A DNA stretch of 64,000 nt from a virus, in IMG/VR virus record IMGVR_UViG_3300045988_176357, positions 96,001-160,000 of that record, one strand, 5' to 3'. This document shows positions 27,116-54,343 of this stretch, piece after piece (position 1 is the stretch's first letter; the number at the start of each line of letters is the position of its first letter). The translations under genes were made by a program, and so were the position numbers. The notes under the pieces were generated by a model that saw only the letters and a list, made by a program, of their open reading frames with translations, did no database searches and was not told where the DNA came from.

Positions 27116-28936
27116 TTAATAACTTTCATATACATCCTCCTATGGGTCTATTACAACAGGGTGACTGGAGACGGCCTGCACGAACTGACTGAACTAGGAT
27201 CTTGGACTGAAGTTCTGATACTAAGCGGCCAGCACAGAAGTGTCGAACTTCTAGCCCAGCACAGGAAATATTCCGAACTTATGCCATAAGGCTGAGCAGG
27301 CAAAGTTGACGGCATGTGCAAAGTCATCAGGCACACCTGGTTTCTTGCCTATGAAGACAACTGTCCTGTTGCCTATATACGCTCTTGGATCCTACTTAAG
27401 CGCAAGAAAGTCATAGGCAAGCTAAGTCTTATCCTATACATTGAACTTCATTATACGTACAGACGTATCTTTCAGCGCCTGCACAATAAGAGCAAGACTT
27501 CTGGACTTGTCTATTGTATAGTTATAATAGTCAGCCTGCTGCTGAGCTTTGTCGTAGCTTATGATGTCGCCTTTCTTAGGTCCGGTATATGTGAACGGAA
27601 CAGGATACGTGCTTGTGAGCAGCAATCCTCGCTGCTTCATGATCTACATGCGCACAAAACCCGCACCACCGTTATCGTGTGCAAATATATCAGGATGCAG
27701 GATATCTATCCATTGCATCAGCTACTAGGCCTGCTATGTCGGCGTCGTTCCTTTAGGGTATCTCTTGCCGAACAATATATCTATGCGGTCTGTATCCGTT
27801 CGCAACCCTGCTACACACGCAGTTGTGAACGACTATGATACAGCGCCCCCTCCGTCCCAGTCTACACCTATGACTATGCATCTGTACATGTGCCTGATAC
27901 CGAGTATATCCTGTACTGAAGCGATGTTGTAGTCATGTTGGGCTGCAACAAGATCACGCAATGTCAGAGGATTGACTGACTAGTCATACGGCCAGCCGAA
28001 AACTTCATTGTACACACGCAGCTTGGAATAACTGTCGACTTTAGCCAGAAGGTCGTACCATTTTCTAGGTTCATTGGTAGCCTAGTCGATCGTAAGATGC
28101 AGCGGATGTATCGGCTGCCCTATATGGTAGCCTGGGAAAGTGAACTGTCTCTAAGGTACGGCATGTACGAAGCCTCCGTTATGTGGAAACACAGTGCGCC
28201 CACACCTGGAACACACAAGGCCGTTCTTTCCGAGCATTCCAAGAAGATCGTGCTATGGATTGGGTATATTGAAATGGTTGCAGTGTGTGCATCTTATTAT
28301 CCACTATGCCTGCGATGACTTATCCCACAGGATACCGCAAGTAGTATCTGTCGTAGTCGGAGTACCCGCATACATGGAATACCCGTGCCGCAGGTTGGCC
28401 GACATAACCTCACGTATGACAGGCACGAAACTGAAATCCACGTCGGCAAGCTCGTCTATGACTATCTGTGAGCATCCGGACAGGCCTCGCAGAGCATCTG
28501 CGTTGGCGTAAGCGGTGCCCAGATACATGAACGAGCCGACATTGAACTGCTTCAGCAGAGTTTTGCTGAGCTATACTTTTTTGATAAGAGATCCGCATAT
28601 CGGACTGGACTCAAGCAGAGGTTTCAGAATGGTAGTGTGATATCGTGTCCTCTGTTCATCTCTTGGTTCGATATGAAGTATATCATAAAACGGTATCAGA
28701 CTGGAACGCAGTACAGACGACTAGGCTATCTGATAGGTCTTACCGACCTGTCGTCCAGTCATCCATACCTGCTATCTAGGATATATAGTGTTGAACATGG
28801 GTGCGAACTGATAGTGCAGATCCAATGTCAGAGGTTTCCCCTTAAGAGAGAAGATACTCAACAGTGGAATGAACGTCCTCAGTTTGTCCTAGGCGATAGC
28901 ATTCAAACACGATTTAACAGCATCAATTAAAGTCAT
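27116..28936 (-). CDS. Terminase large subunit-like ATPase, TAG-recoded (606 aa with several in-frame TAG).
   Basis: Minus-strand frame traced from ATG 28936 to TAA at 27116-27118. Walker A is QVWMTGRQVGKT; a Walker B-like IVIDELADVD follows. The size fits TerL. Track ORFs 27434..27640(-) and 28304..28528(-) are fragments. The + ORF 27314..27838 is its antisense shadow. Confidence 0.5.
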
Positions 28937-28972
28937 AGTAATTCAAGCATAAAACAGAAAGGAAAAACGAAA

Positions 28973-29960: not shown

Positions 29961-30364
29961 TCGTTATCAGTCGTCTTTATGTCTCCGGACTTCCTTTAGA
30001 TAAACTCGAGCAACTGGCAGATGAAATCAGCCACAAAGACTTCACAGACGGCTGTGTCTTCGCATGCTCTGTCCACAAGGATGCTGCTAGGATGTACATA
30101 GACACCTTTGAAGGCGTCGCTACCGACCAGATGGACGATGATCTCAACGAGATTGGCAGACTCGCGCTGAATTATGGTTGCCGCATTGCAGGCAAAATCT
30201 TCCAATTTGGTGAATTTGCAGTATGGTCCGGAAACTTCAATGATGTGAATGAGATCGAATGGGTTGACATGACTCTGTTCATGGAACTGCCCACACACGA
30301 GCTCAGAAAACTTGCAACATATGTAGGTGCCGACAATGTCGTACAAGCTCAACACAAATGTTAA
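29957..30364 (+). CDS. Hypothetical protein.
   Basis: ORF track; start overlaps the upstream stop. Confidence 0.55.
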   Translation: MIVISRLYVSGLPLDKLEQLADEISHKDFTDGCVFACSVHKDAARMYIDTFEGVATDQMDDDLNEIGRLALNYGCRIAGKIFQFGEFAVWSGNFNDVNEIEWVDMTLFMELPTHELRKLATYVGADNVVQAQHKC

Positions 30365-31136
30365 GCCGCTTACTGCTGCACAGGAAAAAGAGGCATTCGC
30401 AGACTTCCATTCCCAAGATACAAAGAAAAGCGAGGCTGCTGCCGACCTGCTGCTTTCCGCTAACTCAAAATTGATCTTTAAATTGGCGCAGGAATTCAAG
30501 CACCATCCCATTCCTTTCGACGATCTCATAGCCGAAGGTTGTGTAGGTCTTATGGTAGCGGCTGGGAAGTTCGACATCAACAGAGGAACACGCTTCATTA
30601 CATATGCAGCATGGTGGATAAAACAGCGGATGCGCAAAGCTGTGGAAACACAGAGCCGCACAGTGCGAGTACCTGCAAAGACACATGTGACCAAGTCCAG
30701 ACTCCTCAGGATGCAAGACCAGCTGAGAGACGAACTAGGTTACCAGCCGGACATCTATCAGCTGTCCGAGTACACGGGCATGCCTGAATCCAAGATCAAG
30801 ACGCTGCTGAACAGCCTTGGGCACGGTGTGTCTGTAGATGCGGAATCAGAAGACACTGAAATGTCCAACCTGGAGAAGGCACGTGTAGCCATTGCCGATG
30901 ATCTTGGTGACCTGCTGGACGACTCCGAGCTGCTGGACGAGATGCGCAAAGCTTTCAAGCGCCTTCCTAAACGTGACCAATTCGTGCTTGGTATCAGGTA
31001 TGGACTTGATGGCGGCGGCGTATCCACACTGGAGGAAGTCGCGCAGGAAGTCGGCAGGTGCAGAGAACGATGCAGACAACTTCAGGAAGAAGCCTTAAGG
31101 AAGCTTCGCAGAGAAATCAGAAAACGAACAAGTTGA
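30327..31136 (+). CDS. Sigma-70 family RNA polymerase sigma factor.
   Basis: Region 2 DLIAEGCVGLMVAAGKFDINRGTRFITYAAWWIKQRM matches sigma-70 region 2.1-2.4. A region 4 HTH follows (TLEEVAQEVGRCRERCRQLQEEALRKLR). Confidence 0.8.
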   Translation: MPTMSYKLNTNVKPLTAAQEKEAFADFHSQDTKKSEAAADLLLSANSKLIFKLAQEFKHHPIPFDDLIAEGCVGLMVAAGKFDINRGTRFITYAAWWIKQRMRKAVETQSRTVRVPAKTHVTKSRLLRMQDQLRDELGYQPDIYQLSEYTGMPESKIKTLLNSLGHGVSVDAESEDTEMSNLEKARVAIADDLGDLLDDSELLDEMRKAFKRLPKRDQFVLGIRYGLDGGGVSTLEEVAQEVGRCRERCRQLQEEALRKLRREIRKRTS

Positions 31137-31686: not shown

Positions 31687-32064
31687 TTGCAAGAAGACAT
31701 CATCAAGTTCCTTCGTAAGCTGCTATATATAGTCACAGGTATTATTTACACACCTGAACGCAACAAGCTGATTCATAAGCTAACAGCAGAAGCATCCAGG
31801 TATTGTAAAAGACAAGTCACTGAAGACGAAATATACAGCTCCGAATGGAGTAAACCGAACAAAGTAATAAAAGTTTATAACTGTAAAAAGGAGAATAAAA
31901 TGAAACGTTGGATTCCAGCACGAAAAGCAGTGCTTCTCCTGCTGTTGGTGCTGGTCGTTGCGGCATTCATGCCGACTACAGTGATAGCTACACTGGTGGC
32001 TATAGGCATATGCTGGCTCGTTGTTACAGGCAGTGACGATAAGGATGGACCAAAGCAGGCCTGA
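31687..32064 (+). CDS. Hypothetical protein with a C-terminal transmembrane helix. Alternative start at 31899 after AAAAAGGAGAATAAA.
   Basis: ORF track; hydrophobic LLLLLVLVVAAFMPTTVIATLVAIGICWLVV segment. Confidence 0.45.
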   Translation: MQEDIIKFLRKLLYIVTGIIYTPERNKLIHKLTAEASRYCKRQVTEDEIYSSEWSKPNKVIKVYNCKKENKMKRWIPARKAVLLLLLVLVVAAFMPTTVIATLVAIGICWLVVTGSDDKDGPKQA

Positions 32065-32150
32065 AGCAAAAGGAAGCCCGTAGAGGGCCGCTAAAGGGGT
32101 CACCCCCTCTCGTTATGTAGGGTTACCCTCTAACAGAAGCCAGAGAGGTC
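32057..32150 (+). promoter_or_regulatory. About 90-nt structured repeat element, copy A, immediately upstream of ATG 32156.
   Basis: About 90% identical to 32757-32837. Two small hairpins (gcccgtagagggc; aggggtcacccct) and the palindrome agggttaccct, then GAGAGG and ATG. Confidence 0.5.
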
Positions 32151-32155
32151 TAAGA

Positions 32156-32386
32156 ATGCAAGGAACGGTCTTGGAGGAGGATATCGGAGCATGTAGAAGA
32201 CAGCAGTATGCTTGCCAGACACCACTGTCGATGGTTTCGGTACTGATTTTGACGAGATTGAGGATGCACTGGCTTAACAGTTACGACGTAACTGTTACTG
32301 ACATGTCGCTATTTTCAAGACACCAGAGGCAGCAGAATATCATAATCCATGCCGAAAGGCTGTTTCGTGGGTATCTTCCTCCTTAA
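32156..32386 (+). CDS. Small hypothetical protein.
   Basis: ORF track, preceded by the repeated element and a GAGAGG RBS. Confidence 0.4.
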   Translation: MQGTVLEEDIGACRRQQYACQTPLSMVSVLILTRLRMHWLNSYDVTVTDMSLFSRHQRQQNIIIHAERLFRGYLPP

Positions 32387-32756
32387 TGGTCCTCCTTCTC
32401 CTCCCCTTAAGGTTCCCTGCACCTTCCTAATCCCCTCTATAGTCTCCCCTTAATGCTCCATCTGCCATAAGGTACTTTTTTTATTAGTTTACCTAGTGTA
32501 CCTTGAAGAAGTACCGTAAGGTACTCTGAAAGGTACACAAGATGGACCTGTATATTAGGTATTATTTATTATGATACCCCTAAAGGGGTATCGTAATAAT
32601 ATAATACTGCGCACGCGCATAATGCGCGACGCATATACACGTATACGCAACACATGCTGCGTCCGGGCTGCGCCCTGTCTGGCATGTGGAGCAAGGATTT
32701 TGATTTTCCTTTGTGTGGCACCATATGTTGCCAGAATCCCATCAAACCTAAAAGAA
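32387..32756. other. Non-coding region with a CT-rich tract, five AAGGTAC-type direct repeats and perfect palindromes. Candidate origin or regulatory region.
   Basis: Pyrimidine tract 32395-32470; (a/g)aaggtac repeats 32468-32540; palindromes gataccccTAAAggggtatc, gcgcacgcgc and atgcgcgacgcat. Confidence 0.4.
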
Positions 32757-32837
32757 AGCCCGTAGAGGGCTCCCAAAGGGGTTACCCCCTCTCGTTGTGT
32801 AGGGTTACCCTCTAACAGAAGCCAGAGAGGCCTTAGA
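32757..32837 (+). promoter_or_regulatory. About 90-nt structured repeat element, copy B, upstream of the sbcD-like gene.
   Basis: Near-identical to 32057-32150; ends AGAGAGGCCTTAGA then ATG 32838. Confidence 0.5.
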
Positions 32838-33923
32838 ATGAAACGAAAGATATATCTTGTCAGTGACTGCCATGTGAAGTCACGATTATGGACCAACTTT
32901 GCTGCTGTGCAGGGCGACGCCTACATGGCAATGCGCAAGATGGCATCCGAAACCGACCCGTCAAGTGTGCTGATCTCCTGTGGAGATTTGCTCGACTCGA
33001 ACAGACCCTCCAATGTCGACCTTGCCGAGACAGCCGAATTCCTGAACCACTTTCACAGGGTGCTGTACATAGCTGGCAACCATGACGACTGTCAGCCGTC
33101 TATCGTGCCTGTGATGTGTCCTTATGCGTTGCATCTGACACCTGATGATGTCGTTCGTGAAGGCAATCTCGTCATCTGCGGCATTGACTGGCAGCGCAGC
33201 AGGGAAGCATTCCTTGAGTGCCTTGCTCAGGCTGCACAAACACTCAGTGACGAGACCAAAGATGGCGGTCAACCCGTATTGATCATGCACCAGGCTGTGC
33301 ACGATTTCCTGTCCATCGACGGCGCCAGCATGTGCACAGCAAAGGAAATCCTGGATACCGTAGGACAGGACGTCCTTGTGTACTCAGGCGACATCCATGT
33401 TGTGCAGCATGTCGCTTCCAGCCTTGGCAAAGGCAGAGTACAGTCTCCAGGTCCGCTCGTCCCTCAGGACACTTTGCAGGCCCGTAGACAGCAGGTTTAC
33501 TGGGAACTCGACAGTGACACCGGGGTACCCACCCGGCACCCCGTCAGCGTGCGTTCTTTTGCGTTTCTTGACAGTGCCGCTCCCGACTTCGACCTTGCAG
33601 CGTCTCTGGATGCTCTTGACAGAAGCCTTGAGCTGCCGCCTGTTGCGATACTGCAGGTGCACGGTGACTATGTGCCGCCTAAAAGTCAGCTCAACAGAGA
33701 GGACTGCATTGTAGTTGTCCGTACGGAACGGACTTCGACAGAAGTAAGAACTGCAGATGAGTCCAGTGTAACTACACTGGAGGAAGCCATAGCTCAGGAA
33801 ATTGAAGCTACCGAACCGCTGCTTGCTGACGTGTTGAAGCCGTTGGTGGACAGGCTGACAACTGCGGATAAACCTGACGAGCTTCTATCGACATTGCTTA
33901 CGAATTGGGAGGTGACCACATGA
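32838..33923 (+). CDS. sbcD: SbcD/Mre11-like metallophosphoesterase nuclease.
   Basis: Phosphoesterase motifs LVSDCHV, GDLLD and GNHDD. Overlaps the SbcC-like gene, as in sbcDC operons. Confidence 0.7.
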   Translation: MKRKIYLVSDCHVKSRLWTNFAAVQGDAYMAMRKMASETDPSSVLISCGDLLDSNRPSNVDLAETAEFLNHFHRVLYIAGNHDDCQPSIVPVMCPYALHLTPDDVVREGNLVICGIDWQRSREAFLECLAQAAQTLSDETKDGGQPVLIMHQAVHDFLSIDGASMCTAKEILDTVGQDVLVYSGDIHVVQHVASSLGKGRVQSPGPLVPQDTLQARRQQVYWELDSDTGVPTRHPVSVRSFAFLDSAAPDFDLAASLDALDRSLELPPVAILQVHGDYVPPKSQLNREDCIVVVRTERTSTEVRTADESSVTTLEEAIAQEIEATEPLLADVLKPLVDRLTTADKPDELLSTLLTNWEVTT

Positions 33924-34166
33924 TACAAGTCAAACACATGGATCTGTTTCATTTCTGCCGGTTCGACAAGCTGTCGCTTGATGTACAGCCAGGTCTAACC
34001 AGAATAGCAGGTCCCAATGGCTCAGGTAAGACGACGGTCTTCAGAGCCCTGATCTACGGTCTGACCGGTTGGTGTGATCCGACATGGGGCACACAAAGCG
34101 ACCTGCAGCAGGACGATGAAAGCGTTCCAGGCTATGTCGAACTGACACTGTCGGTAGACGGCGAGG
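33905..34166 (+). CDS. sbcC: SbcC/Rad50-like ATPase, exon 1 (Walker A GPNGSGKTT). Interrupted by IStron copy 1; the apparent TAA at 34169 lies in the shared element sequence.
   Basis: The N-terminal ABC/SMC head and the C-terminal half at 35832..37514 are each incomplete alone. They fuse in frame when the element is removed. Confidence 0.6.
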
Positions 34167-35835
34167 CTTAACAACCTCCATTGAGGAGTGATCCTCATTG
34201 CAAAGAAAGTGAATTGCTAATAGATCCCAAGAGCCTCACGATGCCTGTAACAAGGATCGAAAGAGAAAACAAAGAAGTGAGGATACCGCAAGGCGACAGT
34301 AAGCCTAAACGGGAGTGACAACGGACGTTTAGCAGCCGAGCCTTGTATCGAGAGATACCCGGTACAAGGAAGGTTCATCGACTAGGACATCGTGTCCGTA
34401 CCCGAGCAGCCGTGTGCGTGATAACGCACGAAAGCAAGGGGAAGTACTCTGGCTCAGGAATGAGTCAATGAAATAGTCAGTGCTTCATGGAAACATGAAG
34501 AGTGGTCAGGAGTGACAACCTGAAACCTGCTACTGGGCGGCAACCGGTAGTGAACAGAACCATGGACTTCAATTGTATTGTTATTTCGTCAAGTTTTATT
34601 TACCGTTTTGATCTTTACAGAACGGAGTTATAATACTCTCAGTAACTGGAGAACACTTTGGAACCAAGAGCACACATAATCAGATTGTACCCGACAAGGG
34701 CACAGGAGAAGCAGCTGAAGAATACCATCGGCTGCGCTCGTTATGCGTACAATTGGGCTCTCGAGAAGTGGCGGGAGATGTATGCCGCACATGATAAGGA
34801 CAAGGCTTCTCCAAAGCCAAGTGCCTTGAAGCTGACCAAGTTATGGACTCAGGAGAAGCCTGACTGGGCACATGAGACAGCTTATTGCAGCCAGCAAAGA
34901 GCGATACATAACGTAGGCGTCGCTTATCAGCGCCTTTAGAGGGGCTTATCGGCGAAGCCGAAGTTCCATAAGAAGGGCGGCAAGGAGACGTTTTACGTTG
35001 ATAATGCGAAGGTCGCATGGTACGGCAATAGAATCCAGTTGCCCGACATCGGACGTGTCCGCGTAGCGGAGCAGATCCGTTTCGAGGGCAAGGTAATGGG
35101 CTACACAGTGTCCCATTATGCCGGACAGTGGCATCTCATAGCTCAGGTCAACGCCGAAGGCGACGTGAAACCTTACTGCGCCGATCCCGAGTCCGTCGTC
35201 GGTATCGACGTAGGACTTCTGAATCCGGCTGTAGCCTCCGATGGAACCGTCTTGCAGCTCCCCATAGAGAAGCTCCAAAAGCTTGACGCCAAGCTCAGGC
35301 GGCAGCAGAAGGCACTCTCCAGAAGTCAGCGCAACTCCAGAAACCACGCGAAGCTTCTCGTAAAGAAGCAGCGTACGCAGAATAAGATCAACAACATCCG
35401 AAAGGATGCAGTACATAAGTTCACGACCACCATTGCCAAGAGCCACGGCAAGGTAGTCATCGAAGATCTGGACATCCAAGGAATGAAGGATAAAGCTCCT
35501 TCAAGAGCCGTCAGAAGGGCGCATAACAGTTCCCTCATGGGCGCCATCCATCGGCAGCTCTCCTACAAAGTCCAGCACCTGATCAAGGTGAATCGCTTCT
35601 TCCCGTCTTCCAAGACCTGCAGCAACTGCGGGCACATAAGGAGCGCCCTTGATTTAAGTGAACGTACATATCATTGCGACCACTGCGGAGCGGTCATCGA
35701 CCGCGACCTCAATGCCGCAATCAACTTGATGAAATCAGGGCTGGTCAAGCCCGAAGCGTCTGTGGAGCAAGTCGGTACCGACTTGCGTTGAAGCAGAAAG
35801 TACAAACGGACGCAACGTCCGTAAGTTCATGACAG
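34167..35835 (+). mobile_element. IStron copy 1: structured 5' group-I-intron-like RNA module (about 34167-34650) plus IS605-family tnpB, inserted in the sbcC-like gene. Boundaries are within a few nt.
   Basis: Shares about 370 nt of structured 5' sequence, including the R-like GGTTCATCGACTAGGAC core, and a common 3' end ccgtaagttcatgacag with copy 2. The host gene reading frame is restored on excision. Confidence 0.65.
34658..35791 (+). CDS. tnpB: TnpB (IS605 OrfB family RuvC-like nuclease) inside IStron copy 1. ATG lost; TTG start tentative.
   Basis: RLYPTRAQ N-terminal HTH; RuvC-I GIDVGL, RuvC-II IEDLD, CxxC..CxxC zinc finger, RuvC-III DRDLNAAINL. 83% identical to the protein at 43225..44340. 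Confidence 0.8.
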
Positions 35836-37514
35836 AATACGTCCTGAAGAGGTTTGCAGGGACTGGTACGAAGCTGGTCGACACATTATGTAAAGACGAT
35901 GCAATAATTGTTAAGAATCGTCAAAAAATAAATGCATGGTTAGAGCAGTTCACAGGCATCTCTATGCCGGTAATGGCACAGTTGATGTGGTTGCGACAGG
36001 AAAACTCATCTTGGCTGCTGACGGCTACAGCTGCTCAGATCAACCAGTTCCTCGGTCTCATTTTCGACACCAAAAAGCTTGAGACCTACAGACAGCATCT
36101 GAAGAATGCCTGTGACAGCATACCGAAGCTGCGCGATGACTTTGACACAAGAAGGAAGCAAGCTGCAGAGACATTGCACCAGCAGTCCTCGCAGAAGGAG
36201 CTGCTGTCACAACAGCTGCAGGAACAGCAGGCACTTGTACAGGCTACACGGGAAACGCTGCAGGCATTTGGTAACAGCATGTCTGTAGCCGACCGTGACA
36301 AGATGCTGCGTCTGTGCGAACAGGAACTGGCAGTCTACAACAGAGACCTCGACAAGTATAGGGATCTGCAGGAAGCTCCTGTCGTGGATATTGAAACCGA
36401 GACAGCAGCTGAGACTGCATTGGTCTCCAAAATATCTGCACAGCGGCTTGAAAAGTCAACTTGTGAGCGGATGCTGAACAGTGCCCGTGCCGATAGAGAC
36501 AACAGCAAGTGGAGGCTTGATCAGCTGCGTCATATACATACGCCTGACACCTGTGAACTATGTGGTTGCAACCTCAGTACCAGTCCGGAAACGTACCGTA
36601 ACAACAAAGTAAAACTGTTACTGCAGCAGTCTTTAAGCTACGAAGAGGCCATCAGAACCTTTTCTGAGACCTACGAAACCAGTGCACATAAATGCATTGA
36701 ACTGGAAAAGCGTATGGCCCTGCTTGAACATGCTATTGCTTCAGATAATAAAGTGCTGGAATCAATCGGACAGAAACGTGCTGAAAGACTCCGGTACATG
36801 GAACAGCTGCAGCATAAAACAGAGCTTCAACACAAGATTGAACAGGTGACTGCTGAAATCGAAAAGCTCAAGGCAACACCTGTGTACGATGCGTCTATAT
36901 CGAAGCAGCAGATTGAAAGCATGCTTCGCAGTGCCGAAGCCAGAGAGACGGAACTGAAATCCGCATATGAGACCTGTATTGCTTCTATTGCGTCTGCACA
37001 ACAGATAATACATGATGCAGAAGAAGATGCTGTCAGGTATAAACGTAACGAACGTGTGCGCCAGGTTCTGTCGACTTTGCGTGATGTTTTGTCACAAAGC
37101 AGAGCACAGGCAAGATACCTTAACAGCAAGATATCTGCCTTGAATGGCAATATAGCTCACTATCTGCAACTGTCCGAGATGCCTTTCACAGTCTTCCTCG
37201 ACCCTGCAGAGCATGTTTTCAAGTACAGGATGGATGATTGTGATGTGCAGCATCAGGCAGGCATGCTGTCTGGTGCACAAAAGGCTGCCGCCGCAATTGC
37301 AATACAGATGTCGCTCGTTGTTACGGCAGTGCCGGATCTGACATTGCTTCTGCTGGATGAAGCGGATGCTTCGTTGTCACCGGAGAACAAAGTAATTGCT
37401 ACCAAGCTTTACAGGGTCCTTGCAGAGACGCTCAGTGGAAGCGATGGCAGCACATTCGTCATAAGTCAGTCAGACACTGTTGCTGCAGAATGTGACAGAG
37501 AAATAACACTATAA
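35832..37514 (+). CDS. sbcC: SbcC/Rad50-like ATPase, exon 2: coiled coil, ABC signature LSGAQK, Walker B LLLLDEAD.
   Basis: Continues exon 1 in frame if 34167..35835 (or 34169..35831) is spliced out, giving the junction VDGE(E/AT)YVLKRF. Coiled-coil-rich middle section. Confidence 0.6.
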   Translation, partial: TEYVLKRFAGTGTKLVDTLCKDDAIIVKNRQKINAWLEQFTGISMPVMAQLMWLRQENSSWLLTATAAQINQFLGLIFDTKKLETYRQHLKNACDSIPKLRDDFDTRRKQAAETLHQQSSQKELLSQQLQEQQALVQATRETLQAFGNSMSVADRDKMLRLCEQELAVYNRDLDKYRDLQEAPVVDIETETAAETALVSKISAQRLEKSTCERMLNSARADRDNSKWRLDQLRHIHTPDTCELCGCNLSTSPETYRNNKVKLLLQQSLSYEEAIRTFSETYETSAHKCIELEKRMALLEHAIASDNKVLESIGQKRAERLRYMEQLQHKTELQHKIEQVTAEIEKLKATPVYDASISKQQIESMLRSAEARETELKSAYETCIASIASAQQIIHDAEEDAVRYKRNERVRQVLSTLRDVLSQSRAQARYLNSKISALNGNIAHYLQLSEMPFTVFLDPAEHVFKYRMDDCDVQHQAGMLSGAQKAAAAIAIQMSLVVTAVPDLTLLLLDEADASLSPENKVIATKLYRVLAETLSGSDGSTFVISQSDTVAAECDREITL

Positions 37515-37524
37515 GGAGAACAGG

Positions 37525-38565
37525 ATGAAGTACAAGAAAGGTGAGTTCGGTTACTGGTGGACAGTAATTAAGGGTAATAAGGATATAGAAGGCAAAGTGT
37601 ATGTAGGTATTATATCTTGTCGTCGCTCTAGCTTGGTATCTCTTAAAGGCGCACCAAAAGAGGTTGGCGGTAGTTTTTATTGCTCTGGCAACGCTCTGAC
37701 ATCACTTGAAGGCGCACCAAAAAAAGTTGGCGGTAATTTTGACTGTTCATATAACAAGTTGACATCTCTTAAAGGCGCGCCAAAAGAGGTTGGCGGTGGT
37801 TTTGACTGTTCGTGCAACAAATTGACATCTCTTAAAGGCGCACCAAAAGAGGTTGGCGATGGTTTTGACTGTTCATACAACAAGTTGACATCTCTTAAAG
37901 GCGCACCGAAAAAAGTTAGTGGTTATTTTTATTGCTACAACAACGCTCTGACAACACTTGAAGGCGCACCAAAAGAGATTGGCGATGGTTTTGACTGTTC
38001 ATACAACAAGTTGACAACACTTAAAGGCGCACCAAAAGAGGTTGGTAGTTGTTTTTATTGTTCCGGCAATCCACAACTCAAAGAGCTCCTAGATAAGATG
38101 CCTACACAAGCTATATGTGGAGACGTGTATAAGTGGTGTGGAAAGATCTGGAGCTTCTTCGACGGCGTGCAGAAAGAGGTAGCAACGATACGCAAATCCG
38201 GCAGCATTACGGTGTACAAGATGAAAGACGGCACCTATGCTATGCACGACGGAGAGGCGTACGCGCATGGCAAAACACTCAAGGAAGCCAAAGCGGATCT
38301 CATCTATAAGCGCACATCAAGGGATCTCAGTGAATACAAGAAGTTCACCATGGATTCCAAGCTGCCGCTTGAGGAGTGCATCAAGATGTACCGCTCGATA
38401 ACAGGAGCGTGTTCTCTGGGCACAAAGGAGTTCTGCTCGAAGAGGAAGCTCAAGAAGGCGTACACTGTTGGGGAAGTCATTGAGATCACAGATGGTGCGT
38501 ATGGGAATGACAAACTTAAGGAGTTCTTTAAAGAAGGCAAATGTCTACAACAGATGAAACCGTGA
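37525..38565 (+). CDS. BspA-like leucine-rich-repeat protein with seven 21-aa repeats (LTSLKGAPKEVGGxFDCSYNK) plus a C-terminal domain.
   Basis: AAGGAGAA RBS. Repeat periodicity is visible in the translation. The N-terminus MKYKKGEFGYWWT is shared with 41601. Confidence 0.6.
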   Translation: MKYKKGEFGYWWTVIKGNKDIEGKVYVGIISCRRSSLVSLKGAPKEVGGSFYCSGNALTSLEGAPKKVGGNFDCSYNKLTSLKGAPKEVGGGFDCSCNKLTSLKGAPKEVGDGFDCSYNKLTSLKGAPKKVSGYFYCYNNALTTLEGAPKEIGDGFDCSYNKLTTLKGAPKEVGSCFYCSGNPQLKELLDKMPTQAICGDVYKWCGKIWSFFDGVQKEVATIRKSGSITVYKMKDGTYAMHDGEAYAHGKTLKEAKADLIYKRTSRDLSEYKKFTMDSKLPLEECIKMYRSITGACSLGTKEFCSKRKLKKAYTVGEVIEITDGAYGNDKLKEFFKEGKCLQQMKP

Positions 38566-38673
38566 AAGCGATGAAAGAAGCTCTGGAAGGTGACCCTAAA
38601 GAACTGTTCAGTGCTCTGGCACACATTATGGTGCAATTCTTCAACAGAGAACTGGTAAACTAAGGAGAACGGA

Positions 38674-39423
38674 ATGAAAGTGACAGAACTTGAAAGAAAA
38701 GAAGTTTGTACGCAAGTAAAGTATGCGTGGAATAAGAAGGTATTTGAGCTTGACGACTGCCCTGACTGGGCTCAGTACGCAGCTGTTGACAAGGATGGAA
38801 CCGCATTCTGGTGCAGTAACGAGCCAGATCTGTGTTCCTTCGGCTGGCTAACCTCTCTGAAAGACAAATATAAGTCCATATGTGACGCTGATAAGCGTCC
38901 GCTTCTGTTCAAGACAGATGGCTGGGTCTACAGTCTGATAAAGAGACCAAAGTCTGCACACAAGAACGTATCGGCACACTTGTGCAGAGACAGCAAAGGC
39001 AGGTTTGTCAGCAGGGTCAAAGACGCCACACCCGATCTGCCTCAAACCCAGTATCAGACAACAGAAGGCCACTATGCCTATGGCAGATGCAAATTGCTCG
39101 AATTCTCCGCACGTGAGCTCAGCGATGAGTATGGTAATGCAATGCTGCAACTGAAACTGCTGCTGAAGAACAAAAAGGGCGTTGTAGAGCTGGTCATAGA
39201 TGTGCGTCCTGTCAGTAAGGAAAAAGGCGCACTGCGTTATTTTGTAGTGCAATCAGGGCTTGAGCATGCACTCTTCAGTGCTTTGTTGCATAAAGACAAA
39301 GAGATCGACGCGGACTTATCTGCGATATGTCCTGTACTTTATATATACAGTAATACTGACATACGTGAAATCAGGTTTCCAGCAGCATCATGCTGGAGAA
39401 TCGAGCGTGAAATTGCACTGTAA
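38674..39423 (+). CDS. Member of the CPDWAQYAAVD paralog family.
   Basis: ELDDCPDWAQYAAVDKDGTAFW motif; AAGGAGAA RBS. Confidence 0.6.
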   Translation: MKVTELERKEVCTQVKYAWNKKVFELDDCPDWAQYAAVDKDGTAFWCSNEPDLCSFGWLTSLKDKYKSICDADKRPLLFKTDGWVYSLIKRPKSAHKNVSAHLCRDSKGRFVSRVKDATPDLPQTQYQTTEGHYAYGRCKLLEFSARELSDEYGNAMLQLKLLLKNKKGVVELVIDVRPVSKEKGALRYFVVQSGLEHALFSALLHKDKEIDADLSAICPVLYIYSNTDIREIRFPAASCWRIEREIAL

Positions 39424-39434
39424 CAGAAAGGAGC

Positions 39435-40139
39435 GTGAAAATGAAAGTAACAGATCTCGATACAAAAGACGTCATAGTAACACGTACAGAAAAACGGTAC
39501 GTACTTAATGAGAAAGTGTTCGAACTTGATGACTGTCCTGACTGGGCTCAGTACGCAGCTGTTGATGAGTGTGGGACTGCGTACTGGCACGAGAACAAGC
39601 CATGTCATATGTTGCACCAATGGTTTCACAGATCAGATAGCAGGTATAAGGCTATTGCTGATTACAGCTTTGATACCACCGACTGGCAGCACAGTCTTAT
39701 CGAGCGACCCAAGAAGGTACTCGAGGTCACTATGGCTGACCTGGAGAAGAAATATGGGTGCAAAGTCAAGCTTGTAAAGGGCTACGATACGCAAGAAAAG
39801 ATAGATGTTACATCTGACGCTGTAGCTGAGACCAGCAGTAACTTAAGTACAGATGTTTACAAGTTGGATACGCAAGTGTTCCTGCTTAACCAGTGTCCGT
39901 CTTGGGCTAAGTGGGCTGCTGTGGATCATGACGGTATTGCAAGCTGGTACAACACTAAGCCAGTTCTCAGCTCAGACAAAAGATGGCAATTGCCGAAAGG
40001 CGTTTTAGGGTGCTGTATGCCAATTGAACGTGTCGGTACTGGACAATACATGCGCTTCGATGCATCGTCTTACTATGATAGTGTAGTGGAAAAGAAAGCG
40101 TGTTTGAGTCCATACAAAGCACGTAAATCCAATGCCTGA
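39435..40139 (+). CDS. Member of the CPDWAQYAAVD paralog family, with two motif copies plus a VTMADLEKKYGCKVKLVKG module.
   Basis: Motifs at residues about 30-50 and about 150-170. Confidence 0.6.
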   Translation: MKMKVTDLDTKDVIVTRTEKRYVLNEKVFELDDCPDWAQYAAVDECGTAYWHENKPCHMLHQWFHRSDSRYKAIADYSFDTTDWQHSLIERPKKVLEVTMADLEKKYGCKVKLVKGYDTQEKIDVTSDAVAETSSNLSTDVYKLDTQVFLLNQCPSWAKWAAVDHDGIASWYNTKPVLSSDKRWQLPKGVLGCCMPIERVGTGQYMRFDASSYYDSVVEKKACLSPYKARKSNA

Positions 40140-42729: not shown

Positions 42730-44405
42730 CTTAACAACTCCCTTTAACCAGTGATGGTTATTGAACAAGAAAGTGAATTGCTAATAGATCCCAAGAGCCT
42801 CACGACGCCAATAAAATGGATCGAAAGAGAAAACAAAGAAGTGAGGATACCGCAAGGCGACAATAAGCCTAAACGGGAGTGACAACGGACGTTTAGCAGC
42901 CGAGCCATGCGTTCGACAGAACGCCAGCGCATGGAAGGTTCATCGACTAGGACATTGTGTCCGTACCCGAGCAGCCATGTGCGTGATAACGCACGAAAGC
43001 AAGGGGAAGTACTCTTGGTTGGGAACAACCAAATGAAATAGTCAGTGCTTCATGGAAACATGAAGAGCGGTTAGGAGTGACAACCTGAAACCTGCTACTG
43101 GGTGGCAACCGGTAGTGAACAGAACCATGGACTTCAATTGTACTTTAATTTCATCAAGAACATTTAACGTTTTGATCTTTACAGATACGGTGTATAATAC
43201 ACCTAAACTGAAGGTGTAAATTTCATGATCAGAACAAACGTCATAAGATTGTACCCGACAAGGGCACAGGAAGCGCAGCTGAATAACACAGCTGGCGCTT
43301 GTCGTTTCGCATGGAATAAAGCCCTCAGTTACTGGGATGAGCAATATGAAGCTCATCTTAAGGATAAATCCATTCCGTTACCGATTTCTTCCAAAGTAGC
43401 AAGCTGGTATAAAGACAACCGCGAAGAATGGGCGTCCGAAACATCTTCTGTCTGTCAGCGCCAGGAAATACTTCACCTTGGCAAAGCCTTCCACAGCTAC
43501 TTTAGACGTCCGGACCATTTCGCACATTCGAAGTTCCACAAGAAGGGAATTAAGGACTCATTCGAGGTTCCGAATGACAAGGCGAAAATCAAAGACGGCA
43601 GACTTTCATTGCCGAAGATAGGCGAAGTCAAAATGGCTGAGCCGCTTCGCTACCAAGGCAAGATATGCAGCTACACAGTAAAGAAGTCAGGCGGCAACTG
43701 GTATGTTCACATACCTGTGGAAACAGGTAAGGACGAGAGAGTTCGTTGCATCAATCCAGAGTCCGTCGTCGGTATCGACGTAGGACTTCTGAATCCGGCT
43801 GTAGCCAGCGACGGCACCAAGCTGGAGCTCCCAAAGGAAACCTTGGACAAGCTCGACGCCAAACTCAGGCGACAGCAAAAGGCACTCTCCCGTTCACAAA
43901 GGAACTCCAGAAACCATGCCAAGCTTCTTCTCAAGAAGCAGCGTACTCAAAATAAGATCAACAACATCCGAAAGGATGCAGTACACAAGTTCACGACCGC
44001 CATTGCCAAGAGCCACGGCAAGGTAGTCATTGAGGATCTGGATATAAAAGAGATGAAGGCCAAGGCCCCCGCACGTTCAGTGCGTCGCGCCTACAACAGC
44101 TCCCTCATGGGCGCCATTCGCTGGCAGCTCTCTTACAAAGTCCAGCACCTGATCAAGGTGAATCGTTTCTTCCCGTCTTCCAAGACCTGCAGCAACTGCG
44201 GGCACATAAAGGGCGACCTCACCGTAGGTGAACGTACATATCATTGCGACCACTGCGGAGCGGTCATCGACCGCGACCTCAACGCCGCAATCAACTTGAT
44301 GAAAGCAGGGCTGGTCAAGCCCGAAGTGTCTGTGGAGTAAGCTGGTACCAGCTTACGTTGAATCAGAAAGTACAGACGGACGCAATGTCCGTAAGTTCAT
44401 GACAG
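42730..44405 (+). mobile_element. IStron copy 2: group-I-intron-like module plus tnpB inserted in the LRR-protein gene. Boundaries are within a few nt.
   Basis: Starts with the same cttaacaac...gaacaagaaagtgaattgct sequence and ends with the same ccgtaagttcatgacag as copy 1. Excision fuses ...KIGG(D/AT)IYCADNELP, continuing the repeat. Confidence 0.65.
43225..44340 (+). CDS. tnpB: TnpB (IS605 OrfB family) inside IStron copy 2. Intact, with ATG start and TTGATC-17-TATAAT promoter upstream.
   Basis: Same motifs as copy 1. Promoter-like ttgatctttacagatacggtgtataat at about 43170-43197. Confidence 0.85.
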   Translation: MIRTNVIRLYPTRAQEAQLNNTAGACRFAWNKALSYWDEQYEAHLKDKSIPLPISSKVASWYKDNREEWASETSSVCQRQEILHLGKAFHSYFRRPDHFAHSKFHKKGIKDSFEVPNDKAKIKDGRLSLPKIGEVKMAEPLRYQGKICSYTVKKSGGNWYVHIPVETGKDERVRCINPESVVGIDVGLLNPAVASDGTKLELPKETLDKLDAKLRRQQKALSRSQRNSRNHAKLLLKKQRTQNKINNIRKDAVHKFTTAIAKSHGKVVIEDLDIKEMKAKAPARSVRRAYNSSLMGAIRWQLSYKVQHLIKVNRFFPSSKTCSNCGHIKGDLTVGERTYHCDHCGAVIDRDLNAAINLMKAGLVKPEVSVE

Positions 44406-45352: not shown

Positions 45353-45467
45353 TGTCAGATGTGAAACATGTAAAAGTAAACAAGGACAGAAAGAGGGGAC
45401 TTAAGATGCCTAAGAAAGCGGCAGGCTTACATAGTCAACAATAAGGAGCACAAGAAAGGAGAACAAA

Positions 45468-45818
45468 ATGAAAATAACAGACCTCGACACAAAAAATGTA
45501 CAGGTAACACGTACAGAAAAACGGTACATATTGAACGATAAGGTCTTCCAGCTTGACTGCTGCCCTGACTGGGCTCAGTATGCAGCTGTGGATGAGGATG
45601 GACATGCTTACTGGTACGAGTATAAACCGAACCAATATTCTGCCAGTTGGAGAAATACGGCACCTCGTTTAGTGTCGCACATACATACTGACACACTTTT
45701 CGATGCCACCGACTGGTGGAATAGCCTTATCAGGCGCCCACAGAAGGTACTTGAGGTTACTATGGCAGACCTGGAGAAGAAGTTTGGATGTAAAGTGAAA
45801 ATTGTAAAGGATATTTGA
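45468..45818 (+). CDS. CPDWAQYAAVD-family small protein with the C-terminal VTMADLEKKFGCKVKIVK module.
   Basis: Motif LDCCPDWAQYAAVDEDGHAYW; AAGGAGAACAAA RBS. Confidence 0.6.
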   Translation: MKITDLDTKNVQVTRTEKRYILNDKVFQLDCCPDWAQYAAVDEDGHAYWYEYKPNQYSASWRNTAPRLVSHIHTDTLFDATDWWNSLIRRPQKVLEVTMADLEKKFGCKVKIVKDI

Positions 45819-45819
45819 T

Positions 45820-46209
45820 ATGCTGACTGCAGATGATGTCTTGTGGCGTCTGGAACGTAACGCATATGAATGTGATGCAATCATACTGGACGGTCAGCTG
45901 GAGACTGTAAAGATCAGCTGCGAATCACGTGACTATATCTTATTAGACATCTCCATAGATGTTAAGCAGAAAACCCAGCGCCTTTTGGTTAGGCTGTATT
46001 ACAGTGAATTGTTCAAGCGTAAACTCTCACAGAAAGATATCAAAGACACTGTGTCAAACCTTGTATGCAGGTTGCTTGAATATCCGAATTCATATATTAC
46101 TGTAAGCAGTATAGACACTGATGGAGTGGTTATCACTGATGGTAACAACAGTAATATCTGGTTACCTTCTGGTGATTGGCAGCTGCTGCCTCCTGTGAAG
46201 GAAGCATAA
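45820..46209 (+). CDS. Hypothetical protein.
   Basis: ORF track; start abuts the upstream stop. Confidence 0.5.
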   Translation: MLTADDVLWRLERNAYECDAIILDGQLETVKISCESRDYILLDISIDVKQKTQRLLVRLYYSELFKRKLSQKDIKDTVSNLVCRLLEYPNSYITVSSIDTDGVVITDGNNSNIWLPSGDWQLLPPVKEA

Positions 46210-46557: not shown

Positions 46558-46935
46558 ATGCAGAAGAGAGACAGTAAAGGAAGATTCATGAAAGCTGATA
46601 AGGCATATGGCAGAGGCTGCAAGCGCAATCACGACACTTGTAAGTGCAACAAGCCCGCTGACAGTGTCAAGGACGAAGGTCCGCAGCTCCCTGTCGACTG
46701 CTCAAATATGAGTGATGACGAGCTTGAACAATTCATCAAATCGCTTGTAGCAGAACTCGCCAATGCAGTCTATATCCCAGGCAAAACCATGACCATCGAT
46801 GTTACCATCGAGGATAACGACGAAGCTGCTTGTACAGGTGACGATGCTGACGCAGATGACGACAAAGGTCACAGTGATAACTTCATGGATTCCTTCAGAG
46901 CCTTCTTGAAGGAGCGTGGAGTGGCACTTGATTAA
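46558..46935 (+). CDS. Hypothetical protein with a Cys/His cluster and an acidic C-terminus.
   Basis: ORF track. Confidence 0.5.
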   Translation: MQKRDSKGRFMKADKAYGRGCKRNHDTCKCNKPADSVKDEGPQLPVDCSNMSDDELEQFIKSLVAELANAVYIPGKTMTIDVTIEDNDEAACTGDDADADDDKGHSDNFMDSFRAFLKERGVALD

Positions 46936-47731
46936 GGCGGCAGCTGCCGGTTTCCTGATAAGCATTGGTTGCAAAGTGGCCGTTATGGAAGGATCGTTCT
47001 TAGGGGCGATCCTTTTTTCTTTGGCCCTGTTGTGTATCATTCACTACAAGTTGCCTTTGTTTACAGGAAAGGTCGGTTACAGGACGCCTGTGACGATACT
47101 CGTGGTCGTACTTGTGTTCAACATGATTGGCGCATTCTCCGGCAGCCTGTTGTTCGATGCCCAGCTGTCTGCTGTAAATCTGTATCAGAGATGCAACGCG
47201 CCCTGGTACAAGGTATTGTGCAACGGTATAGGTTGCGGAGTGCTCATGTTCATCGCAGTGGATTACGGTAAGCGCAACCCGTTGATTGTTATCATGGCGA
47301 TCACCACGTTTATACTGTGCGGTTTTGAGCACTGTATTGCAGACATGTCTTACATAGCTACGAAAGTCGATACATATTGGGCATTCTTGTTGCTTGTTAT
47401 TGCAGGCAACGCAATAGGCGGCAAGCTTGCGTACTATTTAACAGGAGCACATAATGACAGAACGAGAATTGCGGCTCCGACTGAAGCGTCTCCTGGGTAC
47501 GGACAGGGGACTGCCGGTCGAGAAGCTCGCTGCAGAACTGACGACACACAAGGTGGACATTTTTCCGTACATGACATGGCTGTGGAAAACGCAGGGACAG
47601 AAGTTTCGAGTGCTGCTGACAAAGAAAGTGGCGGACTACGCAAAAGCAGCGGAAAAGGAAAAACAGAGCCTTCCGCAGCTGATCGTAAATGCTGGCACAA
47701 TTTTCTTGCATCTCTCAGAAGGCTCGCTTGA
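46916..47731 (+). CDS. Integral membrane protein with about 6 TM segments. The 3' extent is uncertain; the last 280 nt overlap 47454..47930 in another frame.
   Basis: Hydrophobic segments through residue about 175; the LCGFEHCIADM motif is noted. The tail of the ORF is probably fortuitous read-through in GC-rich sequence. Confidence 0.35.
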   Translation: MEWHLIKAAAAGFLISIGCKVAVMEGSFLGAILFSLALLCIIHYKLPLFTGKVGYRTPVTILVVVLVFNMIGAFSGSLLFDAQLSAVNLYQRCNAPWYKVLCNGIGCGVLMFIAVDYGKRNPLIVIMAITTFILCGFEHCIADMSYIATKVDTYWAFLLLVIAGNAIGGKLAYYLTGAHNDRTRIAAPTEASPGYGQGTAGREARCRTDDTQGGHFSVHDMAVENAGTEVSSAADKESGGLRKSSGKGKTEPSAADRKCWHNFLASLRRLA

Positions 47732-47930
47732 ATCCGACAGGACAATTGAGATACTAGGCGACATGTGTGAACCTTATGCACTGTACTTCTTGTTTGCAGG
47801 CGTAGGATTGCCTTGCGACAAGTACCGTGCAGCTGCCAAGGAATACGCAGCCATGTTTCCGGATGCAGTACGTGCTCTGCCTGAACCATATAAGAAACTT
47901 GGAGAGGCACTGACACATGATACCACTTGA
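47454..47930 (+). CDS. Hypothetical protein.
   Basis: ORF track; plausible globular composition. Confidence 0.5.
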   Translation: MTERELRLRLKRLLGTDRGLPVEKLAAELTTHKVDIFPYMTWLWKTQGQKFRVLLTKKVADYAKAAEKEKQSLPQLIVNAGTIFLHLSEGSLESDRTIEILGDMCEPYALYFLFAGVGLPCDKYRAAAKEYAAMFPDAVRALPEPYKKLGEALTHDTT

Positions 47931-52671: not shown

Positions 52672-53943
52672 GTGCCCGGCATAAGGACAAACGAAATGAA
52701 AACAGAAAAAGTGCTGAAGAAGAACGCAATCAAGGCCTATAAAGCCTTTAACAGTGACCTTACCTGCAAAGGCTTCCAATATGAAGTCGGGAAGGAATAC
52801 CACCATATAGGCGAGATTACAGTATGTTGGGCAGGCTTCCATGCTTGTGAAAGTTTGGCTGACTGCTTCCGCTTTTACCCGTTCAGTGAAACTAAAACCA
52901 GAGTGGCCGAGGTGCTCGCCTGGGGTAAAGTCAAGTACGAAGATACAGGTGTAAAACTCTGCGCCTCAAATATCAAGGTAGTCAGAGAACTCACATGGAG
53001 CGAGGTGTTGTCTCTGTGTAACAGCGGCGACAATAATACCGGCGACTGTAATAGCGGCAACCATAACACCGGTGACTGGAACAGTGGCAGCCGTAACAGT
53101 GGCAATTGGAATACAGGCAACTGGAACAGCGGCAACAATAACACCGGTGACTGGAATAGCGGCGACTATAACACCGGCAACTATAACAGCGGCTACTGGA
53201 ATTCCGGCAACAGTAACAGTGGCGAAGATAATAGCGGCAACAGTAACACCGGCAAGCGGAATAGCGGTGACAATAATAGCGGCAACAGTAACACCGGCAA
53301 CTATAATACAGGCAACGGTAACAGCGGCAACCAGAACACCGGCTGCGGTAACAGCGGCGACTGTAACAGCGGCGACTGTAACAGCGGCGACTGTAACAGC
53401 GGCAACCATAACAGAGGCTGCGGTAACAGCGGCGACTGGAATAGCGGCAACTGGAACATTGGCAACTGGAACATTGGCGACCGGAACAGCGGATACTTAA
53501 ATACTTCGGCACAGAAATATTGCTTTATCTTTAACAAACAAGTTGAAAAGTCAGTCTTGGCTCAGATTGAGTTTCCGGAGTTCATGTGCTTCACTTTGAT
53601 AGAGTGGATACCTGACTACAAAATGTCACAGCAGGAGAAAGAGCGGCACCCTGAATACGTCACAACAGGAGGATACCTAAAGGAGTACACATATAAGGAA
53701 GCCTTCAGGAAGTCCTTCGAGAAGGCCAGACGCAAATCTGACTGGCCCAAGCAGCGTCAGAAGCTGCTGGATCTGCCCAACTTCGATGCCAAGGTATTCG
53801 AGGAGATATCAGGCATCACATCTGAGGAACTTGGTGTCAGCGCTAAGGAGCTGGCAGACAAGCCAAAGACAGCCATGGAAGTCACAATGGCGGACATAGA
53901 GAAGGTATTCGGTTGTAAAATCAAGATTGTAAAGGATAGGTGA
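52672..53943 (+). CDS. Period-5 Asn/Gly repeat protein with about 27 [ST]-G-x-x-N units, between a conserved N-domain and a C-terminal VTMADIEKVFGCKIKIVK module.
   Basis: Pentameric periodicity is visible across residues about 115-250. Antisense track ORFs 52966..53512 are repeat shadows. Confidence 0.6.
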   Translation: MPGIRTNEMKTEKVLKKNAIKAYKAFNSDLTCKGFQYEVGKEYHHIGEITVCWAGFHACESLADCFRFYPFSETKTRVAEVLAWGKVKYEDTGVKLCASNIKVVRELTWSEVLSLCNSGDNNTGDCNSGNHNTGDWNSGSRNSGNWNTGNWNSGNNNTGDWNSGDYNTGNYNSGYWNSGNSNSGEDNSGNSNTGKRNSGDNNSGNSNTGNYNTGNGNSGNQNTGCGNSGDCNSGDCNSGDCNSGNHNRGCGNSGDWNSGNWNIGNWNIGDRNSGYLNTSAQKYCFIFNKQVEKSVLAQIEFPEFMCFTLIEWIPDYKMSQQEKERHPEYVTTGGYLKEYTYKEAFRKSFEKARRKSDWPKQRQKLLDLPNFDAKVFEEISGITSEELGVSAKELADKPKTAMEVTMADIEKVFGCKIKIVKDR

Positions 53944-53944
53944 T

Positions 53945-54343
53945 ATGTCCGTAAATTCTTTCTATCCACATACAGAAAGGGAGCAGCTAGCTCCTTTTGC
54001 AAACAAACGTGTGTTGGTAACTGGAAAAGTGCAGCATATTGCGGCTTGGATGTCGGGTAAAAGGTGGGGGTTGCGAGCTAACCTGGTTCAGTGCAAAGTA
54101 AAGCATGGTAATATTCAAGTAAGTGTCGACCATTTTACAGTCAATGTCGGGAAACAATTTATCGCTGTTCGAGCCAAAAGGAACACAACAGTATCTTTCT
54201 ATGCCACAGTCAAGGCATATCAGCCTGACAAACAACTGAAATATGTACCTGATGACGTCAAGATCGCTCTCGGTCTTACACCAAGAGTACCATCATATGG
54301 CATCAAGTGGCCTACAAGGGTCGAGGTGGTCAGTAGATGTTAG
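53945..54343 (+). CDS. Hypothetical protein.
   Basis: ORF track. Confidence 0.5.
   Translation: MSVNSFYPHTEREQLAPFANKRVLVTGKVQHIAAWMSGKRWGLRANLVQCKVKHGNIQVSVDHFTVNVGKQFIAVRAKRNTTVSFYATVKAYQPDKQLKYVPDDVKIALGLTPRVPSYGIKWPTRVEVVSRC

Follow-up and report, generated by a model that had tools for sequence, protein, structure and literature searches.

In the 64,000-nucleotide (nt) stretch of viral DNA analysed here (positions 96,001 to 160,000 of IMG/VR record IMGVR_UViG_3300045988_176357, hereafter the window), the gap upstream of the phage gene sbcD holds two near-identical copies of a 98-nt cassette; between them lie approx. 600 gene-free bases with an ordered and unusually conserved module. We tentatively favour, and regard as quite possible, the reading in which regulatory cassettes, homogenised with each other, flank a module that acts in cis as an origin or a control site; the module would then be the place where the phage starts replication, or else a region linked to the origin that controls the sbcD-sbcC-helicase block. 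The window covers 64 kb of a genome of approx. 190 kb, a size typical of the uncultivated family to which the phage belongs. Neither DNA nor protein comparison revealed a cultured relative in the phage collection. Metagenomic relatives (contigs with L numbers below) comprise 13 close genomes with SbcD identity of 94-99%, including two contigs of 191-194 kb, and distant lineages with SbcD identity of 35-46%.

The repeat is direct and gap-free, with 90% identity between its copies (repeat family D16), and there are two copies in 64 kb:

32068 to 32165, plus strand: cassette copy A, with an A-run, dyads at 32076-32088, 32096-32106 and 32119-32129, GAGAGG at 32143-32148 and ATG at 32156.
32750 to 32847, plus strand: cassette copy B, which is the sbcD leader, with dyads at 32758-32770, 32778-32788 and 32801-32811, GAGAGG at 32825-32830 and ATG at 32838.

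In both copies, the three dyads read, in order, GCCC-GTAGA-GGGC, GGGGTYACCCC and AGGGTTACCCT, and GAGAGG is followed by the ATG seven bases on. A core of 31 nt is identical in the two cassettes and occurs exactly twice in 64 kb, where none would be expected by chance. Similarly, the motif GGGTYACCCYCT occurs four times in the window, always within the cassettes and with a spacing of 23 nt. The duplicated element described in the first-pass annotation is real, its dyads and GAGAGG...ATG included, with edges only slightly displaced from those first given, and the proposed search for further copies returned none beyond these two in the window. Cassette A begins 4 nt after the stop codon of the upstream gene (32062-32064).

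Both 98-nt units are evidently copies of a leader cassette that precedes sbcD in every member of the family. When positions are numbered from the ATG, cassette B aligns nearly gap-free with the sequences that lead into sbcD in L005, L008, L016, L017, L018 and L019, and the sbcD-proximal copy is conserved among relatives whose SbcD identity ranges from 35 to 98%. The features common to the family are an A-rich run, GGCCCTTAA, an ACCC-N11-GGGT(A/T)AC core, a Shine-Dalgarno sequence and an ATG at a fixed distance; within the ACCC-N11-GGGT core, three C-G pairs are almost invariant. A sequence-only model built from sbcD leaders was run on the window and the relatives. In the window it detected the two cassettes and no others, with a score of 74.5 bits for cassette A, and it detected two to three copies per locus in the relatives, direct or inverted and always within approx. 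1.3 kb upstream of sbcD. The extra copies border small, variable cargo. In the window, a decaying open reading frame (ORF), ORF76, lies beside cassette A; L016-L018 carry zinc-ribbon ORFs, L008 has one such ORF together with a mini-ORF and an HNH endonuclease, and in L015 the cargo is a tRNA with a 163-codon ORF. The tRNA-like gene of L015 (1693-1768) has a CAU anticodon, as read by eye, and directly follows an inverted cassette. The upstream copy is inverted and partial in L005/L007 and in L015, with its dyad part retained, and the inverted copies of L005 and L007 clearly lack a Shine-Dalgarno sequence, which suggests that the cassette dyads may act at the DNA level in either orientation.

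The copies are homogenised by gene conversion, while the element itself is under constraint. The two copies of L002 are alike at all but 1 of 89 positions, and the inverted copies of L005 have exact stretches of 48 and 16 nucleotides in common. The 4-nt spacer between dyads 1 and 2 is variable (CGCT, TCCC, CACC and others), and the same variant may occupy site A or site B, depending on the genome; among 24 copies, the dyad stems are almost invariant while the spacer is free to vary. Direct repeats normally invite deletion of the intervening DNA. Nonetheless, both direct copies and the interior are kept in the window, in L002 and L009, and in all 11 new close relatives with contigs that reach far enough upstream. 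The conserved tract of the interior and the cassette core match nothing but this phage in IMG/VR, and on this ground a mobile element found elsewhere was rejected. It should be noted that several contigs start exactly within a cassette (L001/L003/L010 and L028 in copy B, and L030 in copy A), and that the start of L006 lies 71 nt ahead of sbcD. Short-read assemblies are probably broken by the repeat, so that the locus would often be missing or truncated in databases.

With regard to function, it is reasonable to view the cassettes as putative protein-binding regulatory or insulating units, i.e., an operator or promoter combined with a ribosome-binding site, that resemble the promoter-early stem-loop (PeSL) cassettes discussed below. 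The first-pass annotation had suggested a promoter or operator for the phage sigma factor, or a processing site. A promoter or operator role is reasonable because the dyads are conserved and the ribosome-binding site lies at a fixed distance from the ATG. However, a general promoter for the phage sigma factor had to be abandoned: the cassette and its core motif are confined to this locus, with two copies in 64 kb, the sigma factor is RpoD/RpoS-like, and the element has no usable match to the sigma-70 -35/-10 consensus, nor does any such pair appear conserved across the family. The single promoter match inside the cassette, CTAACA-16-TAGAAT (9/12), overlaps the ATG. A SigK-like reading of the core as CATAnnnTA was likewise dropped, given the RpoD/RpoS-like nature of the sigma factor. 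As for a processing site, nothing in the folding or covariation results supports a processing structure.

Cassette A leads into the following two features:

32156 to 32386, plus strand: ORF76, 76 codons, decaying; the frame is open in 6 of 13 close relatives and disrupted in the other 7.
32275 to 32297, no strand: a perfect 23-bp palindrome, TAACAGTTACG-a-CGTAACTGTTA, with a paired C-G to T-A change in L029.

ORF76 had initially been counted as a small gene (gene 32156), a status that it loses on comparison with relatives. The breaks are due to TAG or TGA stops or to frameshifts, substitutions are spread evenly over the three codon positions (5/6/8), and non-synonymous changes outnumber synonymous ones. 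The 5' part is hypervariable, with 39% of alignment columns varying. No match was found in Pfam or PHROG, and no homology to the cargo proteins of relatives was detected. A protein-coding ORF76 was rejected on the basis of the seven broken copies, the lack of codon-position bias and the lack of a family match; for the same reasons, together with the lack of cargo homology, the whole of 32065-32837 is judged to be non-coding.

The interior between the cassettes contains, from left to right, the following parts:

32372 to 32465, plus strand: an ultra-conserved pyrimidine tract with CCTTAA(T) repeats approx. 21-24 nt apart.
32466 to 32545, no strand: an AT-rich cluster of five GTAC-centred short repeats of the AAGGTAC type.
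32459 to 32608, no strand: the easiest-to-melt 150 bp, similar to a DNA unwinding element, ranked 1 of 63,850 positions in a nearest-neighbour stability scan.
32566 to 32599, no strand: a hairpin or palindrome with the core GATACCCC-TAAA-GGGGTATC at 32573-32592 and arms that extend to 16 nt.
32609 to 32649, no strand: a CG-rich alternating purine-pyrimidine tract (GCGCACGCGCAT ... ACGCATATACACGTATACGCA), which holds the longest alternating run of the window.

Four window-wide extremes fall within this module. The most pyrimidine-rich 80-mer in 64 kb (64/80) lies at 32372-32451, the overlapping 80-mer from 32390 has the largest C-over-G excess, the easiest-melting stretch (GC content 0.27-0.43) is the least stable 150 bp of duplex, and from 32629 purines and pyrimidines alternate over 21 nt, longer than anywhere else in the window. 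Thus, the pyrimidine tract and the palindromes noticed at first sight are indeed present, and several of the features are extreme for the window. The repeats reported as five (A)AGGTAC direct repeats require a partial correction: there are five GTAC sites within 62 nt (32472-32536), but only three of them are direct AAGGTAC copies, one being inverted and one reading AAGTACC. The CCTTAA(T) sites comprise three clear copies and a degenerate fourth; Tandem Repeats Finder scored arrays in L019 and none in the window. The tip of the hairpin, CCCTAAAGGG, is unique in the window, and TATAAT-like boxes flank the hairpin on both strands in a back-to-back arrangement, with a TATAAT at 32600-32605.

Upstream of sbcD, the ordered module recurs in lineages down to 35% SbcD identity (L008, L014-L019 and L009), the order being a pyrimidine tract after the upstream gene, GTAC palindromes, hairpin, TATAAT-like boxes, alternating tract and sbcD leader. 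Related pyrimidine tracts occupy the same place in L008, L014, L015, L016, L017, L018 and L019 and start soon after the upstream stop codon in most relatives. Within the tract, the CCTTAAT repeats are found in the clade of the window and in L019, and a motif of approx. 45 nt recurs in L019, the SbcD of which is only 36% identical. Among the 13 close genomes, 3 of 79 tract columns vary, compared with 16.5% in sbcD. The relatives have four to six GTAC-centred short palindromes of the AAAGTACTTT type in AT-rich DNA, and in L009 and L022 the GTAC block has been exchanged as a unit for another repeat variant. The sequence of the hairpin stem varies between lineages while its pairing and the CCCTAAAGGG tip are retained: across seven lineages, 94% of the cells are paired and 7 of 10 pairs have changed on both sides, a value reached by none of 500 shuffles. 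In L025, both partners of one pair have changed, from C-G to T-A, so that pairing is preserved. Equivalent CGCG/CACG tracts are present at the same place in L005, L009, L014, L015 and L018. By its conservation and its architecture, the module is a DNA site that acts in cis and is strongly constrained. A further observation concerns a 220-nt insertion within the module in L009 (approx. 9640-9880) and in L022, which corresponds to window position 32709 and lies between two GGATTTTGATTTT-like copies; either a small mobile element or an indel that arose through duplication might account for it.

How such a locus might work can be sketched as follows. An initiator would bind the module repeats, upon which the AT-rich DNA and the hairpin would open, and transcription from the flanking cassettes or from the central boxes might activate the module. 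The suggestion that the region is origin-like, made on first inspection, gains from its non-coding status and from the succession of a repeat array, easily melted DNA and a covarying hairpin, kept upstream of sbcD-sbcC-helicase, i.e., at the head of a recombination and replication gene block. However, it loses from the skew check that had been proposed with it: no GC-skew inflection is found at 32.5 kb, and the cumulative skew rises almost monotonically, although this test is weak where nearly all genes lie on one strand. Several other points weigh against an origin. No initiator family was matched among the neighbours (the membrane-protein gene, SbcD, SbcC, TnpB and the helicase), and a sigma-70 scan across the relatives gave no consistent promoter position other than that of the boxes next to the hairpin. 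Neither the pyrimidine tract nor the GTAC repeats are present in the L005/L007 lineage, though its cassettes and a hairpin are kept. In addition, the same features fit a transcription-control region without an origin role, other origin candidates are possible beyond the 64 kb examined, and every functional step, from protein binding and promoter activity to origin function, is inferred from sequence alone.

An extension of the origin reading may be considered at this point. Because the module lies between 98-nt direct repeats in a recombination-proficient phage, a transcription-activated origin might be regularly excised as a circle of approx. 680 bp that carries the origin and one chimeric cassette. 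We consider this decidedly improbable. If true, the circle might replicate autonomously in infected cells and carry the origin, along with gene conversion, from one co-infecting genome to another; it would also account for the near-zero variation of the pyrimidine tract across the population.

The main alternative, a pure transcription-control region with no role as an origin, is rather unlikely, but much of what was observed would be compatible with it. The locus would then separate an early operon, made up of the sigma factor and small genes, from that of sbcD-sbcC-helicase. Transcription arriving from upstream would be halted at the C-rich, G-poor tract in the manner of a Rho-type loading site, a phage regulator would use the GTAC palindromes and the cassette dyads as its operators, and the hairpin with its back-to-back TATAAT-like boxes would be a regulated, possibly divergent promoter. 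Indeed, the locus lies between two co-directional gene blocks, the tract that contains the largest C-over-G excess follows soon after the upstream stop in most relatives, the window, L009 and L018 have TATAAT-like boxes placed symmetrically about the hairpin, the phage encodes an RpoD/RpoS-like sigma factor, and short palindromes approx. two turns apart are typical of operators. Rho loading, however, needs no near-perfect conservation, yet the tract is almost invariant and its motifs are common to genomes with 36% SbcD identity; the promoter-like matches are weak and their position is inconsistent across relatives, and both the alternating tract and the easiest-melting DNA are left unexplained. 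There is also little chance that the interior encodes one or more non-coding RNAs, for which two candidates can be named: a C-rich plus-strand RNA with CCUCCUUAA-like motifs that would pair with Shine-Dalgarno sequences, and a purine-rich minus-strand RNA that would end at the terminator-like cassette hairpins. An RNA would agree with the extreme conservation of the pyrimidine tract, and also with the loop of the hairpin (TAAA), whose orientation is the same in seven of seven lineages. No Rho-independent terminator was found on the plus strand, whereas on the minus strand, for which no transcription unit is known, both cassettes have a T-rich run after hairpin 1, which was flagged as terminator-like. 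Nevertheless, Rfam gave no match at gathering thresholds, nor at E values up to 1, and folding energies were no better than those of shuffles (z -0.4 to -1.0), with the exception of antisense cassette B (-2.1). The consensus fold of the cassette amounts to -1.8 kcal/mol, and a hand-drawn two-helix model is 61% paired compared with 58% in shuffles. Across 32140-32400, z values were -1.0 and -0.7 on the two strands, and substitutions keep or break pairs about as chance would have it. No significant covariation was found in the consensus fold outside the central hairpin, where it is equally expected of a DNA palindrome. Moreover, CCUCC motifs are absent from the tracts of L008, L015, L017 and L018; a mimic of the 16S rRNA 3' end was dropped as a family feature in view of its absence from several relatives.

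It is similarly improbable that the arrangement is a neutral by-product of recombination, in which the leader was copied along with shuffled cargo, the cargo ORF is decaying and the second copy has no function. The decay of ORF76, the differences in cargo among lineages and the presence of other mobile DNA at or near the locus (TnpB elements, an intein and an HNH endonuclease) would be in line with such a history. What it does not readily accommodate is the near-invariance of the dyad stems next to a freely varying spacer, the occurrence of copies upstream of the module, in either orientation, down to 35% SbcD identity, and the retention of both copies in every close relative with sufficient upstream contig despite the deletion-prone nature of direct repeats. 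Finally, a DNA-packaging site (pac or cos) with repeat arrays bound by the small terminase subunit is very improbable. The gene for the large terminase subunit lies 3.5 kb to the left, and repeat arrays with bendable AT-rich DNA are typical of such sites; on the other hand, the module is tied to sbcD and not to the terminase in all relatives, several genes lie between them, and the contigs of 191-194 kb neither begin nor end here.

The genes that surround the locus are as follows:

30327 to 31136: an RpoD/RpoS-like sigma factor gene.
31687 to 32064, plus strand: the conserved upstream gene, 125 codons, with a C-terminal membrane helix; L007 (40% identity, E 5e-14) and L015 have homologues in the corresponding place.
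32838 to 33923, plus strand: an SbcD/Mre11-like phosphoesterase gene, which opens the block of recombination and replication genes (Pfam Metallophos; PHROG 1649; synteny with sbcC and the helicase).

The gene order rightwards is sigma factor, membrane-helix gene, the locus, sbcD, TnpB element, SbcC and helicase. Throughout the relatives, the synteny is kept as terminase (minus strand), small ORFs with or without the sigma factor, a gene-poor gap (approx. 350-1500 nt before sbcD in most lineages), sbcD, sbcC and helicase. TAG is not a stop in the left 25 kb of the window, where long ORFs otherwise vanish: in 1-25300 and in 27116-28942 (minus strand), long ORFs, 20 or more of 200-846 codons, exist solely with TAG read as sense, and the phage is therefore stop-codon-recoded. 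The large terminase subunit (608 codons, 27116-28942, minus strand) is among the products obtained by reading through TAG. The standard code works from approx. 29 kb rightwards, which places the code boundary a few kb to the left of the locus; in this family, TAG is a non-stop codon in late genes. No tRNA was found in the 64-kb window.

A few observations on the rest of the window may be added. The sbcC gene (33920-37514) is split by a TnpB (IS605 OrfB) element of approx. 1.6 kb: the part at 33920-34165 codes for residues 1-82 of SbcC and that at 35739-37511 for residues 50-641, with approx. 33 residues encoded twice, and TnpB homology extends from 34667 to 35821, while sbcC of L009 is uninterrupted. 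At least three copies of the TnpB element or of its left end are present (42767-44391, 34203-35461 and 63858-64000). The parts at 34203-34593, 42767-43158 and 63858-64000 are 86-100% alike, and a full TnpB of 371 codons is encoded at 43225-44340; the repeated parts upstream of TnpB could include guide-RNA or end structures. An ATPase of 832 codons with a weakly KaiC/RecA-like N-terminus (47917-50415) contains an intein with Hint and LAGLIDADG homing-endonuclease domains. Amid the phage replication region, and also in L009, there is a formate/nitrite transporter-like gene (46916-47731), which may be an auxiliary metabolic or membrane gene. In-frame tandem arrays occur at 52973-53572, 57078-57319 and 37570-38069; those with a 15-nt period consist of at least 26 GGCAAC-type, pentapeptide-repeat-like units in two genes, and that with a 63-nt period, in the 346-codon gene that follows sbcC, has six units. 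Paralogous small genes or gene ends of families D4, D6, D10 and D11 are repeated four to six times across 20 kb (38662-39800, 45465-45822, 53863-53947 and 57684-58041), with a common 'CPDWAQYAAVD'-like stretch and a common C-terminus.

The locus provides a concrete, family-conserved candidate for a point that controls replication start and gene-class switching in large uncultivated phages with recoded stops: a module of approx. 400 bp, under stronger constraint than the neighbouring genes, with the sigma-factor operon on one side and the genes for recombination and replication on the other. In turn, the cassettes, homogenised as they are, would extend PeSL-like shuffling beyond T4-type phages. 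The value of the finding is that of a testable lead, not of a new principle, in a phage group without an experimental system.

Among known systems, the cassettes most readily invite comparison with the PeSL cassettes known from T4-type phages (PMC2839356, PMC4122927). Both are composites of approx. 100 bp that occupy the whole interval between one gene's stop codon and the following ATG, both contain an A/T-rich run, a GC-rich stem-loop and a Shine-Dalgarno sequence, and both are repeated in the genome, flank small variable or orphan cargo and are sites of homologous exchange. In contrast to PeSLs, however, the cassette described here has no sigma-70 consensus promoter, is present in two to three copies at one locus instead of dozens in hyperplastic regions, is inverted in some of its copies and brackets mainly a conserved non-coding module instead of an orphan gene. 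Promoter and terminator activity and the formation of mini-circles, by which PeSLs are also recognised, are putative here.

For the module, an iteron-type origin such as ori-lambda offers a parallel. Ori-lambda consists of four dyad-symmetric repeats, an AT-rich segment and then a palindrome. Similarly, the module has short repeats approx. two helical turns apart, adjacent to the easiest-melting DNA, with a conserved palindrome next to it, near replication and recombination genes. The module differs in that it is intergenic, whereas ori-lambda lies inside the initiator gene, in having two types of repeat, one of them within a long pyrimidine tract, and in its lack of a skew signal or an identified initiator. 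A second parallel is provided by origins activated by transcription: the primary origin of T7 consists of promoters followed by AT-rich DNA, and oriF and oriG of T4 combine a promoter with an unwinding element. Here too, a promoter-like cassette points into AT-rich, easily unwound DNA upstream of replication genes, but the promoter is putative and the RNA made from cassette A would be C-rich, which would disfavour a stable RNA-DNA hybrid. Hairpin 1 (GCCC-GUAGA-GGGC), with its GC stem of 4-5 bp and purine-rich pentaloop, recalls boxB of lambda nutL/nutR, which is likewise a leader element with two copies per genome. However, there is no boxA-like sequence upstream and no N-like protein is known; the local hairpin is absent from L008 and L016-L018, and distant relatives pair GCCCTT with AAGGGC approx. 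50 nt away. A lambda boxB-like hairpin was rejected for this lack of conservation in distant relatives, and the resemblance is treated as chance. Both the candidate origin or control region and the PeSL-like cassettes around it belong to kinds of element that are already known.

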